A stretch of 64,000 nt of DNA, from the NCBI RefSeq assembly GCF_000372725.1, contig NW_005201287.1, positions 961,081 through 1,025,080 on the forward strand, in the 5' to 3' direction. The DNA is from Emiliania huxleyi CCMP1516 (lineage: Eukaryota). The position numbers and the translations under genes are program-made. The notes beneath the pieces were generated by a model. That model was not told the origin of the DNA. It saw only the letters and a program-made list of their open reading frames with translations, and made no database searches. Shown here piece after piece: positions 1,759 through 33,381 of this stretch (position 1 is its first letter; every line of letters begins with the position of its first letter).

Positions 1759-4700
1759 CTAGCTCCCCCGACGCAGCACAGGCGGCTTGGTCACCCAAAG
1801 CTGCCCTGCACTATCCCTATCGACCAGCGGAGTGCTCCCGGCGGCCCACAAGTGGCCCGCGTGCCGGCGGTGCGTGTGGACGCTCTGCCAATGGGACTCG
1901 CGCGCAATACCATGCCAGCGACTGCGCGGCACGACAACCGGCGCCCGGGCAAGTAAGCGCGACGCGCTGCCGGGCGCGTAGCCGCCGCCGCGGGCGGCGG
2001 CATTGGCGGCGGCCCCAAAGAGGACGGTGTTGCGAGAGAGTGCGTCGAGCTCGGCGTCCATCTTGTCGAGCCGCACCTTTGACGTCTGCGCGCGCAGCTT
2101 GCTTCTCGGGGTGCGAGGCTTGAACGTGCGGCGACGCGGCGCCGGCGGCCTCCATTCCGGCAGCGTCCTCTGCTCGCGCATCTCGTCGAGCACGGCGCGC
2201 GCCTCGGCGAGCCTGCCCGCCTGACCGGGTGACAACAACAGAGTCAGAGGACTCCTTCATTCGGTGCGCCTCGGGCGAGCCCGGCCCGCCTCGTAGAGCT
2301 CGCTGATCAGGTCCTGCTCCCGAGTCGCGTTTGGCGCGAGCAGCAAGCCTGACGGGAGAGAGATGAGCGGCCCTCGCCCCACGGCCGCTCGGTCTCGGCT
2401 GCCTCTCGGCTGCCTCTCGCTCTCGCGCCGTGAGCGCGGCCCGCCGCGAGCAGCGAGACGGCGTCCTCCACAGCGCCGCTCAGCGTGAAGCCGAGGACGA
2501 GCTCTTGGCCAAACGTCCTCTGCACCTCGGGCGCGAGCCAGCGGCTCGACGCGCTGAAGATGGCGCGGCCCGCCTCGAGCAGCTGCCTGTTTGCGGGCCG
2601 CCCGCCCGACGGCATCACAGCGCCGACCAAGTACTGCACCGCGCCTGACAGACGCCACCGACACCAGTGACTGGGCAAGGCTCCACCTGCGGGTCAGTCT
2701 GCTGCACCGACGCCGTTCTGCTCGGCCGGGTTGGCCGCCGGCAGCAGCCCCGAGCGGACGCCCCACCGGAAGACCTGAGGGGCGTGTCCCGGGACGGTTC
2801 ATGGACGTGTCCTCGGGGCCGAGTAGAGGAGTCCCGCCGGAACGCCTCGAGGGCGAGCGGCGCGTCCGCGTGCAGCTCGCAGCCGCGCAGCAGCGTCATC
2901 AGCCCGACGATGCACGCGAGGTCGGCGCGGTACGCGCGGGTGAGCTCCGCGTACCTAATTAAAATCTTCATAATCATCACCGATTTAATATTATTTAATC
3001 AGGCGCGGGTGGGCTCCGCGTACCCGGTGCGCAGCAGCCCGGCATTGCGGCAAGCGAGCATCACCTACTCGCAGCCTTCTGCTCCTCGATGGAGAGCTGT
3101 CTGTGGAGGGCCTGTGGCACGCGAGCGTCGCCGTCGCGACGTGCGGCGGGTCGAGCACCTATTAAACAATATCAACACTACTCACCTTTTTAAGATTATT
3201 TAATTAGTCGCGACGTGCGGCGGGTCGAGCACTTTCCCGCCCTCCTCCTCGACCTCGTGCAGCAGCGTCACCGCCAACGTTGCGTCCGCCGCGCGCGCGC
3301 ACGCGACGAGCGCCGCAGACAGCAGCTGCCGGTGCTCGTTGACCTGCGTCGCACTCAGCTTCCCGCTGGCGCCGCGCCGCAGCCGAGGAGCGACGCGCGC
3401 GCGCCGGTAGAGGGCGACGGCGTCGGAGGCGGCGCCGCGGGAGCCGTGCGCGCGGATGGCCTGGTCGACGTCCCACCGTCTGCTAATTAGGAGAGAGTGC
3501 GCCAGGGAGAGTCCCCCCCCCGGAGAGCCCCCCCCCCCCCGTTTCTGCGCCCCGTTCTCCGCCGCCGCCAACCCTCCCGGGGAGAGCTAGCTCGCCTCCG
3601 CCTACTCCTAGCCTCGCCTCCGCCTACTCCTAGCCTCGCCTCCGCCTACTCCTAGCCTCGCCTCCGCCTACTCCTAGCCTCGCCTCCGCCGCAGAAGAGA
3701 CGCCCTCGCCGTACAGACGCTCCTCGAAGAGGCGGGCGCCTACGCGTACGCATCGGGAAGGGTCGTGGAGGGTGGCAGCGGGGGCCCGCTCCTTCCCAAG
3801 AGAGGCGGCGGCCGAGGGACGGCTCGATCCGCACGAGACCCGACTCGGCGCTCGCCATCATCAGCCTAAGGGCGCCGAGTCGCGCGAGTGGCGCGGCGAT
3901 GTGCGCGAGGAGGAGTGCGCCGGAGGGGGAGGGAGGGAGAGCCGGGTGAGGGTCCGGCTGAGGACGCGAAGCCCGCGCTCCGATGCAGACTGCCACAGAG
4001 CGAGCGCCTCGTCGCCTCTGCCGGCGAAGACGAGCGCCTCGAGAAAGAGGCACATCGGCCTACAGGAGAAGTCGAGGGGCAGCTCCGAGCACGGCTCCTG
4101 GAGGCGCGTCTCGCGGAGGCGGCTCCCCGGCCTACACCACCACAACCACCGCGCGGGTGACGGCCTGCCTCCCGCGGCCACTTGCAGGGGCAGTCTCCCT
4201 CGCACCGCTGCTGCAGAGGGATGTGTCTAGGAGGTGTCTAGGAGGTGTCTAGGAGGTGTCTAGGAAGTGTCTAGGAGGTGTCTAGGGAGTGTCTCCCTCG
4301 CACCGCTGCTGCAGAGGGATGTGCAGAGTGCGGCACGAGTGCGAGTAGATCTGCAGCGCGGTGCTGACGTCGCCTAGGGCCAGGGCCGGGGCCGAGGTCG
4401 GGCGTCAGGTGAGGAGAGCTGCGACGAAGTGCTGATGTCGCCGCTGATCGCGCAGACGGAGAGGAGCGGGTTGAGGACCTCCGCCGCAGCATCCGCCTCG
4501 GACAACCCTCCCTCCTCGGCGCCGCCCTCCGTTGCCGGGCGCAACTCAGCCGTGTTACCAGCCTCGTCAATACCCTGCTTGCCGCCGCCCCGCGCGCCGC
4601 CCTCCGCGCCGCCCCCGGGCCGAGGCAGGACGGAGAGGCCGCAGTCCATCCGCAGGTGCTCCACCACCTACAGGAGGAGATACGAGCCTCGCGGCAAGGT

Positions 4701-6290: not shown

Positions 6291-8287
6291 TCAGCACGCC
6301 TCTTGCTGTGCTGCGTGCGCGGTCTCGTGCGGCGGCGGCGGCACGACGAGCTGCGGCTCGCCGGGCACCGTGAGTGAGGCGGTGCAGGGCGGCGTGATCG
6401 CCACCAGCGGCGCGGAGTACGGGCTTCCGCCGGGGCCGCCGCTGCTGCGGGGCCCGCTGCTGCGGGGCCCGCTGCTGCGGGGCCCGCTGCCGCACCGGTC
6501 TGTGTTTGCGCGACTGTTGATCACGCGTCCCGCGGACGACCAGTCCATCAGCAAGCAGTAGGTCAGGCCGAAGAGGGCGAGCGGCGCCTGGGCGATGGTC
6601 GTGGCGCCGACGCAGAAGGCCAGCTTGCGAGGCACGGAGGAGGTGGCGAGGTCGGTGAGGGCGAGGGCGCCGACGACGGGCGAGGCGACGGCGTAGAAGC
6701 AGAAGAAGGTTGCTCCGATCGAGAGGAGCGGCTTGCCGAGCGGCACGAAGAGGCACATCGAGCAGATCGAGAGGATGCGGGTCTGCATGTGCGGCAGCAG
6801 CACCCAGAGGATGGCGCCAAAGGCGTCTCGAACCGCCTCGTCGTTGCTGACGGCGTGGGTGACGGCGCCGCTCGCGGCGAGGAGCGCGACGTTGTACGCC
6901 GCCACCAGCACCGACGCGATGCCGATGAGGAGGAAGAAGGCCTTCTTGGCGCCCGGGTCGCGCTTCCCGAGCAGGGTCATCGTGCGGACAGAGACCACCT
7001 GGATCCAGCCCTGCTGCGCGGCGGAGAGGGCCTGCGGACATGGCGTGGACGTGTCATCGACATGTCGTGGACGCGACCCGAGGATCCAGCCGTGCTGTGC
7101 GGCAGGCCTCTAACCCTAACCCTAACCCTAACCCTAGCCCTAGCCCTGCTGCGCGGCGGGCCTGCTCGCACTGCACCCAAATGGCTCCCGCCGCCACTTG
7201 CGCGGTCGAGACGCCCCGCACGTTGGTGAGCGCAACCAGCTGCAGCTCGAAGATGAGCCAGCCCGAAAAGTTCGACGCGATCTGCGGCAGCGTGAGCCGC
7301 GCGAACTCGCACACCTCCCTGCGGCTGAAGAGGGGCGCGTGCTGCTTGCCGCGCGGCAAGAAGAGCGGCAGGAGGCCGAACCACCACGCGAGGCCGCACC
7401 ACACCACGATCCGCGAGGCGCGCACCGTGCTCCACGCGACGGCGGCGCCGAGCACGCCCCACCGCCAGCGGTAGATGAAGGCGTACCTAGGTGAAGGCGT
7501 CAGTGGCCGTTCTTAGTCAGGCGCCGAGCAGGCCCCACCGCCAGCGGCAGAGAGAGGCGCGCGAGCAGAGCACGTCCAGGCCGAGCCCGGTGAGCAGCGA
7601 GTTGAGCGAGGCCTAGGGTTAGGGTTAGGGTTAGGGTTAGGGTCAGGGTTAGCCGAGCCCGGTGAGCAGCGAGTTGAGCGAGGCCGAGCGAGCGTAGCCG
7701 CACGAGACGAAGACGGCTTCGATCTGGATGTCGAGCAGCAGCAGCAGCGCGCCGCCCGCCATGACACGCGTGTACGTCCCCACGGCGGCGGCGATGCTCG
7801 GCTCGACGCCGACGCACCGCAGGACGGGCGCAGAGACAAACTGGAGAGCGCACGAGGGCAGGCAAGAGAGGGCCGCGAGGACGACGGCGCGCCGGAAGTA
7901 GTGCGGTATCCGGTCCCTGCGGCTCGCGCCGATGCACCCGGGCAGCACGTTCCACAGGTAGGCGCTCAGGCCGAGCATCACCATCAGCATCGAAACGTTG
8001 AAGTAGACCCGCCCGTAGCCGAGCGCCGACTGCAGGTGCGCCGAGTCGGGCGTGGAACCCGCAAAGAACATGGTGATGAGAGGCGGTGCGCCCCACTCGA
8101 GGATGGCAGACAGGCAAAGCGGCACGCCCTGGCTGAAGAAGAAGCGCAGCTCGTTGCGAAGGCTGTACGGCGGCTCCTCGGCGCTGCTGCTGGCCGGCTC
8201 GGCCGCGGCGGACTCCTCCGCTTCGGGAAGCATGGTCTCGCGCTGCGTCTCGCGACAGGGGCTGTCGGGCGACAGGAGCTGCGACAT
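6291..8287 (-). CDS. MATE (MatE) family efflux transporter, 3 introns (7613-7684, 7487-7562, 7032-7161)
   Basis: Multiple TM segments; MATE-like motifs LRNELRFFFSQGVP, YAFIYRWRWGVLGAAVA, EFARLTLP...WLIFE, SVRTMTLLGK. The frame is restored by GC-AG introns. Confidence 0.85.
7111..7146. repeat. Interstitial telomeric repeat (CCCTAA/CCCTAG)x6 in a MATE intron
   Basis: taaccctaaccctaaccctaaccctagccctagccc. Confidence 0.95.
7614..7651. repeat. Interstitial telomeric repeat (TTAGGG)x~6 flanked by an identical 34-bp direct repeat (7580-7613, 7652-7685)
   Basis: Visible directly in the sequence. Confidence 0.95.
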
Positions 8288-8964
8288 GATCCGTCTCTGC
8301 CGTCGCGGTCGGACGGTCCTGCTCGGTCGGTCGTGGTCACGGTTCGGGCTCCCTACTCGAGTGAGGCGGGCTCCAACTGTAGGGTGGTCGGACTGTCTAT
8401 TGGGATCGACCCCAGCTATGGGCTCGAGAGTACTGTTGTACGTACTTTTAGCTTACTGGGAGAAAAGAGAGAGGGGGGTTGTGTTCTCTAGGCCCCTAGG
8501 GTTAGGGTTAGCTCTCTCTGTTGTAGGCCAGGTTGAGGAGATTACACGATCCCGGCGTGAGCAGGACTAACTGAGGGATCCGCTCCTGACAGTGGCATGC
8601 ACTGCGCTGCGGCGCGTGCCACTGTCTTTGTTTGAAGTTAAAAGTCGAATCAGAGCGCCGTCGGCCGTCGGCGCTGTCCCTCGTTTTCCTCCCACGGACC
8701 GCCCGTCCGGCACCGCTCGCTCCGGGACGCACGCCGGCGAAGCACCATCAAGCTGCTGTACGGCCCCGGCATCGCCTCCCCTGGCTTAGCTAGACTGAGA
8801 GACCATTGTGCACATGGTTGGTCTCTACAATATATACACTGACACTAAACCTCCCAGAGCTCGTCCCGGTCCGTCACGGCCATCCTCGGCCTCCGGAGGG
8901 CCCCCGACCGCGGCGCGGTGTGGCGGCGTCACAAATCCGACCACAGAGCACCACGAAACCACGA

Positions 8965-23066: not shown

Positions 23067-25111
23067 TCACGCCGCCACAGTCTCCGGCGCCGGCACGCTC
23101 AGCGACCCCAACGACTGCGCCGCGCCGTCCGTGGCGGCCTGTTCCTCGTCGCTTCCGGCGGCGGCGGCGGCGACAGCCTCGATGCGGCACGCCCCCTCGG
23201 CGGTCACGTCGACGCTCACGACGAGCCCCGACTCGCCTGGCGCGTTGTCGCACGCGTGCAGCGCGAGCGCCGCCACGGCCCGGGGCGGCTGCGGCGGCCC
23301 GTCGGGGGGAGAAACGGCGTCGGCGGGCGGCGGCGGCGGCATCTCGACGAGGCGAAGCACGAGCCTCTGCCCGGCGGCCGGCGGCTCGACCTGCAGCGGA
23401 ATCTTCCGGTGCAGCGGCACGCAGCTTCCAGCACAAACGAGGGGGAGGAAGGCGCCGCCGCCGAGCTCGAGGGCGAGAGTGCGCGGCAACCTCCGCCGCG
23501 CACTCGCTGCACCGGAGCGTTGCCAGCCGCCCGCGGAAGTGTCGCCCGCCGCCATGAGCGAGCCTACGGGCGAATAGCATGACGAGAGTCGCGGACCTGC
23601 CTCTGCGGCGGCGGCGGCCTCTCGTCGGGTGAACCGTACAGCGCCGCGCCGCTGGCCGCAGCCTCGTCGGACGTGGCGCCAAAGTGGAGTGTGGCGCCTA
23701 CATGACAACATGTCAGGGCCGTGTCATGGACATGTCTACGAGATGGCGCCAAAGTGGAGGGTGGCGCCGGGGAGCTCAGCGGCGAGGGCGGCCTGCACAC
23801 AAGGCATGCGGCAGCCGCCGCCCGAGAGCAGCACCTCGCGCACGCACCGCGCGCCCTCGAGAGCTGACGCCTCGCCGGGCGAGCAAGCGTCGGCGGCGCG
23901 CAGCGCCGCGCGGGCGACGGAGCGCACCGCCGCACAGAGGGGGCGGGCGAGGTCCTCGAGGCTCGCCCGCGAGACGGTGACAAAGTGGTCCGCCCCCTCC
24001 GCCTCGACGGCGATCTGCGCCTGCGGGACACCCCTCAAGAGTACGCCCTCGCGTGGACATGTCACGGACGCGCCCGTGGTCTCCCTCTCCTCCGGCGGCA
24101 CGTCTGCGCCTGAGTCCCGCCAGAGAGGCTCCGCTTGCACGCCTCTGCCGCCGCGCCCAGCCGCGCCTTCGCGCGCGCGTTGCCGGACAGGTCGACGCGC
24201 GAGCGGCGGCGGATGTCCTTGAGCGCCAGCGCCACCAGCGCGGCGTCCACCTGCGCAGCGCCGCGCGTCTCGTCCGACGCCGTCGAGGCAATGCTGAGCC
24301 GGGCGACTGCGCGCCGCAGCCGCGTGCTTCGCGGCCCCGCCGCAGCCTCCCCGCCGCAGTCAGCCCCCCCCTCGCCGCCCCCCTCCCCCTCCGCCTCCCC
24401 CTCCGCCTGCCCCTCGGGCTCCTCTCCAAGGTCCACCACCGAAGCAGACACGCAGCAGCCGCCCACGTCCACCACCAGCAGCCTGCGAGGTGCGGCGCCT
24501 CCGCCGCCCGCCGCATCGGCGCCCGCCCCGTCGCCGCCGGCCGCCGCCGCCTCGATCTCGGCCACGCGCAGCAGGGCGACAGCGAGCGGCGAGGGCAGCG
24601 CCAGCTTGACCCGCATGCCGCCGCCCCGCGCCGCCTCGAGCAGCGCGTCGGCGCGCGAGGGAGCGAGGTGCGCCGGCGTGGCGAGGACAACCTCGCGCAC
24701 CGGCGCGCCGCAAAACGAGTCCGCCGCGCCGCGCAGCCCACCCACAACCAATGAGAGCAGCCGCACCGCCGTGTGCGTCTTGCCACCCGGCACCGCCACC
24801 GAGACTGCGCCGTCCTTCTCGGCGGCAGACGTGAGGAAGCCCCAGCGAGAGCGCGCGGCCTGCACGACCGGGTCGTCGAAGTCGCGGCCGAGCATCAGCA
24901 GCAAGTCGCTCATCGTCAGCTTTGGGTTGCGTGCTGCCTGTGCGGCCGCCGCCTCCCCGAGCAGCGTTTCGCCGTCGGCGAAGGCCACGGTCGTCGGCGT
25001 CGAGCGCGAGCCCTGCTCGTTGGCGATGAGCTGCACCGTGCCGTGCCGCATCACCGCCATCGTGCAGCACGTGTTGCCCACATCCAGCCCCAGCACGCCT
25101 GCCGCGCTCAT
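23067..25111 (-). CDS. Atypical Hsp70-family protein (HSPA14/Ssz1-like), introns 24021-24109 and 23698-23767
   Basis: Motifs VLGLDVGNT, IANEQGSRSTPTTVAF, VVLATPAH, VVDVGG, AEACKRSLS, VLLSGGGCRMP, DEAAASGAALY; catalytic motifs are degenerate. Confidence 0.8.
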
Positions 25112-31059: not shown

Positions 31060-33381
31060 CTACGCGCCTGCCGCATCCGTCGCAGACGTGATCCTCTTCG
31101 GCGTGATCCTCTCCGTCGCCTCTTCGATGGCGGTGGCGATGTCCGGGTAGGCGGCGCCGCCGTGCTTGCTGTTGTCGAGGCCGGCGTCCTCGACTTCTTT
31201 CGAGATGCGGAGCAAGCCTCCCGCCATGAGGCCCGAGAAGAGGATCGCACTCAGCGCGCCGACCCAGAGGGTGATGAAGACCGTGCCTGCGGGGCAGGGG
31301 CGAGCGTCGGAAGGGAAAGAGAAGAGGGCGCACTTTGACGCGGGAGCGGACCGACGATCTGCGTGGCGAGCAAGAGGCCATCGCCGCCGTAAAAGACGCC
31401 GCACGCCGTGCCAGACTCCGTGTAGGAGTAGTCGCACGTGCAAAAGAAGCCGACGGCGAGGCAGCCCCACAGACCGCACGCGCCGTGGACAGCGAAGGCG
31501 TCGAGCGGGTCGTCGATCTTGAGCCTGCGCATCAAGCACGAGGCGCCGTGGTAGAAGAATGCTCCGATGAAGCCGATGACGACCGACGCCCAGATCTCGA
31601 CGGTCGTGCAGCCGGCGGTGATCGAGACGAGCCCTCCCAGCAGCGAGTTGCAGGTGTGGCCGAGGTCCCACACGCCGGGCGACCCTCCGCAGGAGCCGGG
31701 CGCGAAGCGCTTGAGGAGGATCCCCGTGGTGGCGGCCTAGGGTTAGGGTTAGGGTTAGGGTTAGGGTTAGGGTTAGGGTCAGGGTTAGGAGGATCCCCGT
31801 GGTGGCGGCCTAGGGTTAGGGTTAGGGTTAGGGTTAGGGTTAGGGTTAGGGTTAGGAGGATCCCCGTGGTGGCGGCCTATTAGGGTTAGGGTTAGGGTTA
31901 GGGTTAGGGTTAGGGTTAGGGTTAGGGTTAGGGTTAGGGTTAGGGTTAGGGTTAGGGTTAGGGTTAGGGTTAGGGTTAGGGTCAGGGTATGGGTTAGGGT
32001 TAGGGTTAGGAGGATCCCCGTGGTGGCGGCCGTGGCGGCGGAGAGCGTCGTCGTGACGGCGGCGCGGGCCGCGTCGCGCGCGTAGTTGTGGAGCGCGAGG
32101 GTTGAGCCCGGGTTGAAGCCGTACCAGCCGAACCAGAGCAAAAAGGTGCCCAGCACTTGCAGGGACGCCGACTGGCCGGCGAAGGCGTCTGCGGGGGCGA
32201 CGCGTGCGCGTGAGGGAGGAGGCGGGGCAGCCGCACCGAAGCAGGCGGGTGCGCACGTTCGGGCAGCTCTCCGAATCGGCCCTTGCGAGGTCGGATGATG
32301 AAGGCACCGGTGAAGGCGCAGATGCCTCCCGTCATGTGCACGACGCCGGAGCCCGCAAAGTCGACCATGCCTGCGGACGGGGCGGGGCGGGGCGGGTGAG
32401 GGGAGGGGGCGGTGGCATTGTCTGCTGGAGGGGGGGGGGAGAGGGGCACCAGTGAGCATCGCGTCCTTGTTAAAGGCGGAGAGGAAGCCGTGTTCGTCCC
32501 ACACCCTGCGGCCAGAGAAAAAGGGGTGACCGCTGTTCAGACGTCTGCCACCCCTCCCGGGGTCTGCTCCCCCTCCCCGGGGCTAGCCCCTGGGCTGGGA
32601 GCGTAGTACGCCCGTCGCTGCAGATGCGGAGCGAGGCGAAGGCTGGCAATGGACGCTCCCCGGGGCAGCTGCGCGCGCCAGTGCACCACCGTCGGGTATA
32701 CGAAGCCGACGATGGCGAAGACGTACGCGCAGTAGCCAACCAGCGTGCACCGCTCCGCCACAGCGCCGGACGTGATGGTCGCTGCCGCCGCCGCAAAACA
32801 GTACTGGAAGAAGAAGAAGACGGCGTCGTGCCCGTAGTCCTTTTTGCCGGTCGTGTCGTCGGCTCCGGAGAGGGCAAAGTTGTGGCCGCTGCCGCCGATG
32901 AAGGCGTTCCCGTCCTCGCTCTTGTCATAGGCAAAGCCGAACCCAATGAGGTACCTAACAGCAGCGGGCTGGGCTGAGCGCGCCCGCGAAGGCCCCGCTG
33001 ACACCGCTCCGGCCCTCGGACACCAGACCAGCCCGCCGAAGCACGCGTCCATGACGGACTTGAGAAGGATGTTCTTGACGCTGCGCATGCGTACCGATCC
33101 CGCCGAGAGCAGCGCGAAGCCCGCCTGCATGAGAAAAACTAGAGCCGCGCAAAAGAGCAGATAGAAGGTGTTCGTCTCGCTCTGCGACCGGGTGCACGAG
33201 GCGTGAGTGGGCGCAAAGGGCGGCGCGGCGCGCCAGCTGTCGCCGCCGGGCGGACCTCGTCAGCTTCGAAGCGGACCTCGTCAGCTTCGAGCTGTCCGCG
33301 CAGCGCCGTGGCGCAGGCCGTCAGCGAAGACACGTTGGCCGTGACCTCTGGACCGAAGTTGCAGGCCGAGAGAGGAGTCAT
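31060..33381 (-). CDS. AMT1: Ammonium transporter (AMT1 family), multi-exon
   Basis: Motifs [96 protein letters not shown]. Confidence 0.95.
31714..32031. repeat. Four identical 24-bp exon-derived repeats (AGGAGGATCCCCGTGGTGGCGGCC) separated by three TTAGGG arrays
   Basis: Copies start at 31714, 31787, 31854 and 32008; the spacers are telomeric hexamers. Forms AMT intron 31737-32030. Confidence 0.95.

Follow-up and report, generated by a model that had tools for sequence, protein, structure and literature searches.

A telomere-repeat insert in an Emiliania huxleyi MATE gene, very likely a recently gained intron and likely the work of telomerase

How can a coding exon take up telomere repeat and its gene still encode the protein? 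The question is raised by a MATE gene in the window analysed here, a stretch of 64,000 nucleotides of Emiliania huxleyi CCMP1516 (contig NW_005201287.1, positions 961,081 to 1,025,080). Within this gene, two copies of a 34-bp segment (7580-7613 and 7652-7685) flank 38 nt of telomere repeat, one unit of which is a CCCTGA variant as read on the minus strand. As the preliminary description had it, this direct repeat is perfect; it is also maximal at exactly 34 nt, and about 7e-13 such 34-mers within 100 nt are expected by chance in the window. The 72-base insert combines telomere repeat with a copy of the start of the next exon. It is very likely spliced out as a GC-AG intron, and it likely arose through telomerase action at a break in the gene, with the sequence around the break duplicated during repair.

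Structure of the MATE insert and its absence from RNA contigs

Every base of MATE intron 1 belongs to the exon copy or to the telomere tract, and none comes from outside them (Table 1). A 72-nt deletion can be placed here in 35 equivalent ways, and only at 7613-7684 does it run GC..AG on the minus strand. Since the non-coding plus strand also gives a GC..AG placement of the same deletion (7611-7682), a GY-AG fit says little by itself. The duplication is no mere bystander, as it supplies the donor. For the acceptor, a CCCTAG variant repeat had been proposed. Instead, the tract ends CCCTA and the copy adds the G. Thus, the acceptor G (7613) doubles as the first base of the downstream copy, and no variant repeat is required. 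Only G/GC (slash, splice boundary) is duplicated at this locus, with the A of the AG supplied by the tract.

Removal of the three introns gives a 572-aa ORF (8287-6291) that reads ...ARSASLNSLLTGLGLDV; the unspliced gene meets a stop codon within the first repeat. Pfam MatE matches exon 1 with an E value of 6.8e-11. Aligned with homologs, the spliced protein is gapless in 11 of 11 at junctions 1 and 2 and in 10 of 11 at junction 3; no E. huxleyi MATE protein was found in this homolog search.

We compared RNA and DNA using k=31 contigs from 4 of 20 runs, leaving out X17-X20, which held almost no matching words. Contig depth in these data gives no splicing efficiency, and depth ratios are rough. 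Both RNA runs (X11 and X13, from two studies) skip the 72 nt. Record 21 of X13 runs from 8274 to 7657, continues for 22 letters where the genome has 170, and resumes at 7486-7387; the 148 missing letters equal 72 + 76. Judging from their coordinates, X11 records 12-14 fit the same spliced product. DNA run X7 likewise skips exactly 72 nt, which counts against our explanation and reflects either an empty allele or an assembly artefact. Because the 34-nt repeat is longer than k=31, contigs may collapse it, and the RNA skip is therefore not independent proof. DNA run X10 breaks exactly at the 34-bp repeat, apparently with one telomere-side branch pruned, to go by the coordinates. Four substitutions are common to X10 and the X13 transcript, which favours an insert that is present in the DNA and absent from the RNA of that haplotype.

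The earlier claim of a complete GC-AG intron is upheld by placement, reading frame and homology; the RNA skip, also seen in one DNA run, could reflect k=31 collapse. The insert is a real feature. Very likely it is removed as a GC-AG intron, was gained recently and belongs to a large family. We rejected the idea that a GC donor is special: in excerpts of PMC4028052, GC donors make up 56-65% of E. huxleyi junctions and are the majority type.

Next-exon copies start all three MATE introns, at different stages of decay (100%, about 88% and 81-85%). Intron 2 is an older duplication-type intron, with contig depths in X11 of 48 spliced versus 18 retained, a rough ratio that gives no splicing efficiency. 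The tract of intron 1 carries five CTRAC motifs whose A lies 7-31 nt before the intron end, and a sixth, at 37 nt, spans the copy junction. Such candidate branch motifs on the C strand are not obligatory, as the 130-nt intron 3, with its G-sense tract, has no CT[ACG]AY motif and yet is spliced. A short telomere tract at 8494-8511, starting CCCCTAGGG, lies in non-coding sequence upstream of the gene.

Table 1. Features of the MATE and AMT genes in the window
Feature	Position	Strand	Basis
MATE exon 1, 201 aa, Pfam MatE	7685..8287	-	Gene model, Pfam
Upstream copy of 34-bp duplication; 7685 = last exon base, 7684-7683 = GC donor	7652..7685	-	Sequence, placement
MATE intron 1, 72-nt GC-AG, copy of next exon's start + telomere tract	7613..7684	-	Sole GY-AG placement; absent from RNA X11, X13 contigs (k=31 caveat); homolog collinearity 11/11
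38-nt telomere tract, C strand on sense strand	7614..7651	-	Sequence
Downstream copy of duplication; 7613 = acceptor G, 7612-7580 = exon	7580..7613	-	Sequence, placement
MATE exon 2	7563..7612	-	RNA contigs, gene model, homologs
MATE intron 2, 76-nt GC-AG: diverged ~40-nt next-exon copy + non-telomeric filler	7487..7562	-	Repeat D3; skipped in RNA, present in DNA X10, X7
MATE exon 3	7162..7486	-	RNA contigs, gene model
MATE intron 3, 130-nt GC-AG: two diverged exon copies, G-strand-sense telomere tract (7110-7147), GACATGTC-type filler	7032..7161	-	Repeat D2; skipped in RNA X11, X13, present in DNA X10, X7
MATE exon 4 to stop	6291..7031	-	Gene model
Ammonium transporter (AMT) gene, 499 aa, seven introns	31060..33381	-	Gene model
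AMT telomere intron, 294 nt: three stacked units (154, 67, 73 nt)	31737..32030	-	RNA X13 vs DNA X7; public protein

A stacked telomere intron and other duplication inserts in the window

The window holds a second telomere intron, in the AMT gene, where the duplicated segment of 24 nt is too short for k=31 collapse. Four copies of this 24-bp exon piece and three C-sense tracts lie at 31714-32030. Each unit, one exon copy followed by one C-sense tract, is a full GC-AG span, and the units abut as AG/GC, so that the exon between them has zero length. As each unit is 1 mod 3 long, the frame is kept only if all three are removed. Record 11 of RNA run X13 reads up to 32008 and then continues with the sequence just below 31714, the whole 294-nt block being absent, and DNA run X7 retains the tract side (base 32007); X7 and X13 come from different samples, and the junction lies outside X10 coverage. 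The AMT block is cleanly spliced. In X11 the junction branches, with a depth of 97 on the telomere side versus 142 on the other, which suggests that retention in that run is partial but substantial.

With the RNA-supported introns, the AMT model is identical, letter for letter, to E. huxleyi protein XP_005789347.1, and the public gene model already has the block as an intron. The junction is gapless in all 38 homologs that span the site (39 in total, one not covering it); among other members of the AMT cluster, 10 of 14 span the junction and 4 begin downstream. P0110 and P0112 are without the block but read through the next intron, a pattern that fits an empty allele, partly spliced RNA (as in P0113) or collapse.

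Several smaller observations concern the same gene. Loss of one unit regenerates the donor, and stepwise splicing could follow; stacks like this one also occur in metagenome loci L024, L030, L039, L051 and L080, described below. A next-exon copy was not seen in 6 of the 7 AMT introns. CTCAC, a candidate branch motif, lies at 23-27 nt in 3 of the 6 non-telomeric ones. At 33250-33290, a 21-bp tandem duplication by the first AMT donor stays exonic, with RNA using the second GT; no intron resulted from this filler-free duplication. In X10, a divergent version of AMT parts from the window sequence at 32108 and ends loosely in AT-richer letters, which may mark an intron placed elsewhere in a paralog or a relative.

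Elsewhere in the window, a 26-bp perfect duplication at 3133-3232 surrounds 48 nt of AT-rich filler in a genome of 66% GC, with a GT-AG placement at 3159-3232 on the minus strand; the filler is possibly captured foreign or organellar DNA. A 33-bp duplication with 11-mer tandem-type filler lies at 4193-4323 and a 16-bp duplication with ACATGTC-type filler at 23674-23759, and no exact GY-AG placement was found for either. Since duplication inserts in the window also carry other fillers, telomerase would be one filler source of a wider process.

Candidate telomere introns in metagenome loci

A marine metagenome scan for telomere tracts beside GC-rich sequence yielded at least 103 loci, which the atlas taxonomy resolves to the level of Eukaryota. 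After dropping 3 duplicates and 15 loci below 60% GC, we kept 85 among the matches listed. Pfam searches of 420 frames from 79 loci oriented 17 loci; there was no Pfam match in 61 of the 79 scanned. The 17 exclude L015, whose PARP-repeat match fell far short of the cut-off, and include L050 and L097, although both lie below the Pfam curated cut-off. A codon model (16/17 in leave-one-out) oriented 70 of the 85 loci, and strand calls beyond the 17 rest on this model. Blocks from one locus do not count as independent. Chosen for holding a tract, the selected loci carry about 2.6 telomere blocks/kb among the matches listed.

The preliminary description had suggested looking among intronic telomere tracts for flanking duplications, CCCTAA-sense bias and terminal CTAG. 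Duplications were found: among the matches listed, 71 of 181 internal telomere blocks in the 85 loci have one, 11-50 nt long, versus 2 of 709 swapped controls. The remaining 110 of 181, with no detectable duplication among the matches listed, count against our explanation. A GY-AG placement exists on the coding strand for 57 of the 71 duplicated blocks versus 28 of 71 on the opposite strand, with donors divided into 31 GT and 26 GC; the 14 of 71 with no sense GY-AG placement also count against our explanation (all among the matches listed). An earlier set of strand-blind intron calls (59/194) included mirror calls (18/56 on the opposite strand) and was superseded. The reading frame was restored in 25 of 25 testable cases among the matches listed, 16 of them of non-3n length, which shows insertion into coding sequence but not splicing as such.

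Terminal CTAG was rejected as a family hallmark, as it ends 1 of 57 introns among the matches listed, where the commonest end is ACCAG (13). Of these same 57, 44 owe both bases of the AG to the duplicated exon piece, 8 owe it just the G and 5 neither base; as at MATE, a CCCTAG variant is thus not the usual acceptor. The sense bias was borne out. Among the matches listed, all 17 Pfam-oriented loci have a C-sense primary tract, unselected blocks divide into 81 C, 15 G and 18 fold-back, and the count per locus (n=66) is 55 C, 2 G and 9 ties. The AG lies at a greater distance from G-sense tracts (median of 23 versus 2 nt; p 8e-4, among the matches listed).

Two such introns in a dynein locus (L074) are gapless against 5 of 6 homologs, the sixth of which ends earlier. 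This locus matches proteins at 69-77%, and one matching cluster includes an E. huxleyi protein. P0072, a member of the dynein heavy chain cluster, is labelled as a Synechococcus MAG protein and most likely reflects eukaryotic contamination of the bin. In viral contigs, the exact family pattern gave no match; a looser pattern gave 6 loci, all unrelated and set aside. L002 and L004 are two places on one 204-kb viral contig that hold mirrored clusters of short TTAGGG arrays.

Origin of the telomere introns

The dozens of look-alike inserts suggest that telomerase acting at broken genes likely makes new introns. In the route that we propose, a staggered break would leave complementary 3′ overhangs, of 34 nt at MATE and 11-50 nt in the family, and telomerase would add GGTTAG units to the 3′ end of one or both strands. 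Fill-in of the overhangs, rather than their annealing, would then duplicate the segment. In mammalian cells, CST-guided fill-in of complementary 3′ overhangs produces tandem duplications according to sections of PMC8355091, and a similar CST route may operate here. End-joining would yield copy-(TTAGGG)n-(CCCTAA)m-copy, the architecture that we observe. As the upstream copy starts GT or GC, it supplies the donor. The duplicated exon piece also supplies the AG or, at MATE, the tract end does so together with the copy's first G; removal of the insert restores the coding sequence exactly. The observed bias may arise because C-sense inserts survive more often, their C-rich tract placing CTAAC motifs next to the acceptor. 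Stacked units could form when the same site is hit again or when a unit is amplified by unequal exchange, and the copy would decay later, as in MATE introns 2 and 3.

Fold-back junctions bear on the role of telomerase. Among the matches listed, 26 junctions in 19 loci run G-then-C and none runs C-then-G at a spacing of up to 25 nt; in 4 C-then-G pairs spaced 25-40 nt apart, also among these matches, exon-like sequence lies between the two tracts. The G-then-C geometry is expected if both 3′ ends are extended and then joined. The same geometry could also be favoured by selection that keeps a C tract next to the acceptor; about 5 C-then-G junctions are expected on a rough survival ratio, for which the probability of seeing none is 0.005.

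The register of the tracts is also uneven. Among the matches listed, the G strand ends GGTTAG at 28 of 82 junctions versus 12.6 expected (p 2e-5), or at about 16 of 48 versus 7.4 when one junction is taken per locus (p 0.002). It starts GGTTAG at 45 of 82 unselected junctions, where about 13 are expected, and at 15 of the 23 junctions without acceptor selection (both among the matches listed). GGTTAG is the commonest human telomere end and matches the catalytic cycle, as given in parts of PMC11144197. Trypanosoma telomeres end in TTAGGG (sections of PMC5700094), so the preferred end depends on the template, and reading the register requires the haptophyte template; telomerase of the haptophyte Pavlova makes TTAGGG (sections of PMC3622300).

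At the MATE locus, the G strand of the tract ends GGTTAG once a base in common with the copy is counted in. The start of this tract is not in the GGTTAG register, which counts against our explanation. MATE and AMT both show GGCC and then TAGGG on the G strand at the priming end, with no base in repeat register, at MATE a further point against our explanation; the 1-3 bases common to tract and copy lie at the opposite end. In contrast, 67-80% of mammalian break-site inserts have an in-register priming base, a tendency rather than a rule, according to sections of PMC2246262. Overall, the core of the earlier idea, that breaks healed by telomerase are born as introns, gains from the AMT case, the sense bias, the duplications and the register; that telomerase was the author is something we infer and consider likely.

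Other readings of the MATE insert accept the duplication but not this origin. The intron could be new and its tract captured or copied, from extrachromosomal telomeric DNA, from another telomere intron or from C-rich RNA reverse-transcribed by a LINE-type enzyme. Twin priming by a LINE-type enzyme would give fold-backs. The variable duplication length (11-50 nt) suits capture or copying, as do the non-telomeric fillers of the same architecture at 3133, 4193 and 23674 and in MATE intron 2, and CCCTGA as the second unit in both the MATE tract and the last AMT unit hints at copying. However, random fragments do not predict one register favoured at both tract ends, and among the matches listed we saw 0 C-then-G junctions in 85 loci and no common non-telomeric sequence among called introns, leaving this reading unlikely. 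A different possibility, which we regard as distinctly improbable, is that break repair overwrote an older intron at the MATE site, so that the insert would represent remodelling and not gain. Stacked units at AMT and several other loci indicate that one site may be struck more than once, an intron already in place included, and the 110 of 181 blocks that lack a duplication among the matches listed also fit overwriting. Yet MATE intron 1 retains no residue of other sequence and its donor is an exact exon copy. Homolog P0004 crosses the site unbroken, though its call drifts off later as if into an intron, and P0002 and P0017 are full length on contigs of 14.7 and 10.6 kb. If these are gene calls on unspliced DNA, they hint that relatives of 52-54% identity have no intron at this site.

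It is also conceivable, but very unlikely, that the insert is an unspliced, strain-specific knockout allele and that the RNA contigs derive from empty alleles or from collapse. The same 72-nt skip in X7 DNA would fit a knockout, and intron retention is pervasive in E. huxleyi (excerpts of PMC4028052). Against it, the break that X10, with its four X13 substitutions, appears to show at the repeat is what a genome carrying the insert would give with one branch pruned, and the AMT block is spliced. Moreover, with several inserts per kb and frame kept on both sides, the loci would otherwise include many dead genes. We attach next to no weight to an assembly artefact in the window. The draft genome is repeat-rich (excerpts of PMC4028052), but telomere-side letters at the AMT junction turn up both in RNA and in an independent run of DNA, and the same architecture recurs in dozens of independently assembled loci among the matches listed.

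The proposed route resembles intron gain by break repair and by tandem duplication (PMC3443670, PMC4202315) coupled with the insertion of telomere repeat at break sites (PMC2246262), as far as the sections of these papers that we cite describe them. Nergadze et al. 2007 (PMC2246262) attributed short internal TTAGGG tracts, like that in the MATE insert, to telomerase, and the pairing of a short telomere tract with a target-site duplication is found at MATE and in the family. In the sections of that paper cited here, target-site duplications occur at 6 of 130 rodent and 4 of 25 primate loci, and in its main text the word "intron" appears only within a reference title. The inserts described here differ in lying in coding exons, in being spliced, in their common duplications (71 of 181 among the matches listed) and in their frequent fold-backs. 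Break-repair intron gain of the Daphnia type also leaves a direct repeat from the adjacent exon at the intron end, as found here, and this is read as the scar of a staggered break. In the available text of the two papers on such gain, "telomer" is absent, the repeats are 4-12 bp and the filler source is mostly unknown; here, repeats of 11-50 bp surround telomere filler in one register. In tandem-duplication gain at AG/GT (sections of PMC3443670), a piece of exon gives the donor, as here, and both splice sites come from the duplicated AG/GY. This is so in 44 of 57 family introns among the matches listed but not at MATE, where only G/GC is duplicated, and a large part of the intron consists of telomeric filler between the copies.

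Introners (Gozashti et al. 2022, PMC9860276) likewise, in the sections cited, show many similar gains, precise restoration of coding sequence and a splice site derived from duplication. Telomere introns differ in having no terminal inverted repeats, no fixed 3-9-bp duplication and no shared unique sequence, and we rejected Introner membership because their 5′ ends are local exon copies and their duplications span 11-50 nt. As the Introner pipeline described there discarded low-complexity families by hand, existing screens of this kind would filter telomere introns out. Calcidiscus leptoporus, an intron-rich haptophyte, also has pervasive internal TTAGGG tracts, which sections of PMC13518057 read as an assembly obstacle and possible rearrangement scars, with no link to introns. 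Introns derived from telomeres go unmentioned in sections of PMC6726248, PMC11347835, PMC12480563 and the Kao preprint. The component processes are already known, and a telomere-derived route of intron gain was not found in the sections of the literature covered.

The origin of new-intron sequence is a long-standing question, and for the majority of gained introns none can be traced. In the present case the source is readable base by base, the protein is restored exactly and the event recurs. If our reading is right, telomerase provides an element-free, enzyme-templated route of intron gain, which would also account for the internal telomere tracts at which haptophyte assemblies break up. Read and colleagues reportedly mentioned tandem repeats in introns in 2013, which may bear on priority. 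In its broadest form, the proposal casts telomerase as a writer of introns, both in Emiliania and in other marine eukaryotes with GC-rich DNA. The enzyme would turn staggered exon breaks into precise introns genome-wide, repeatedly and without a mobile element, the CCCTAA strand serving as branch point and pyrimidine tract, and a large share of introns would be telomerase-derived. We regard this as evenly balanced between true and false.

C-sense tracts repeatedly carry the CCCTGA variant close to their 5′ end, at 7640-7645, 31780-31785 and 31982-31987 and in metagenome locus L080. The variant is the second unit in the MATE tract, in the last AMT unit and in L080, and its recurrence may reflect copying between tracts, telomerase error or selection.
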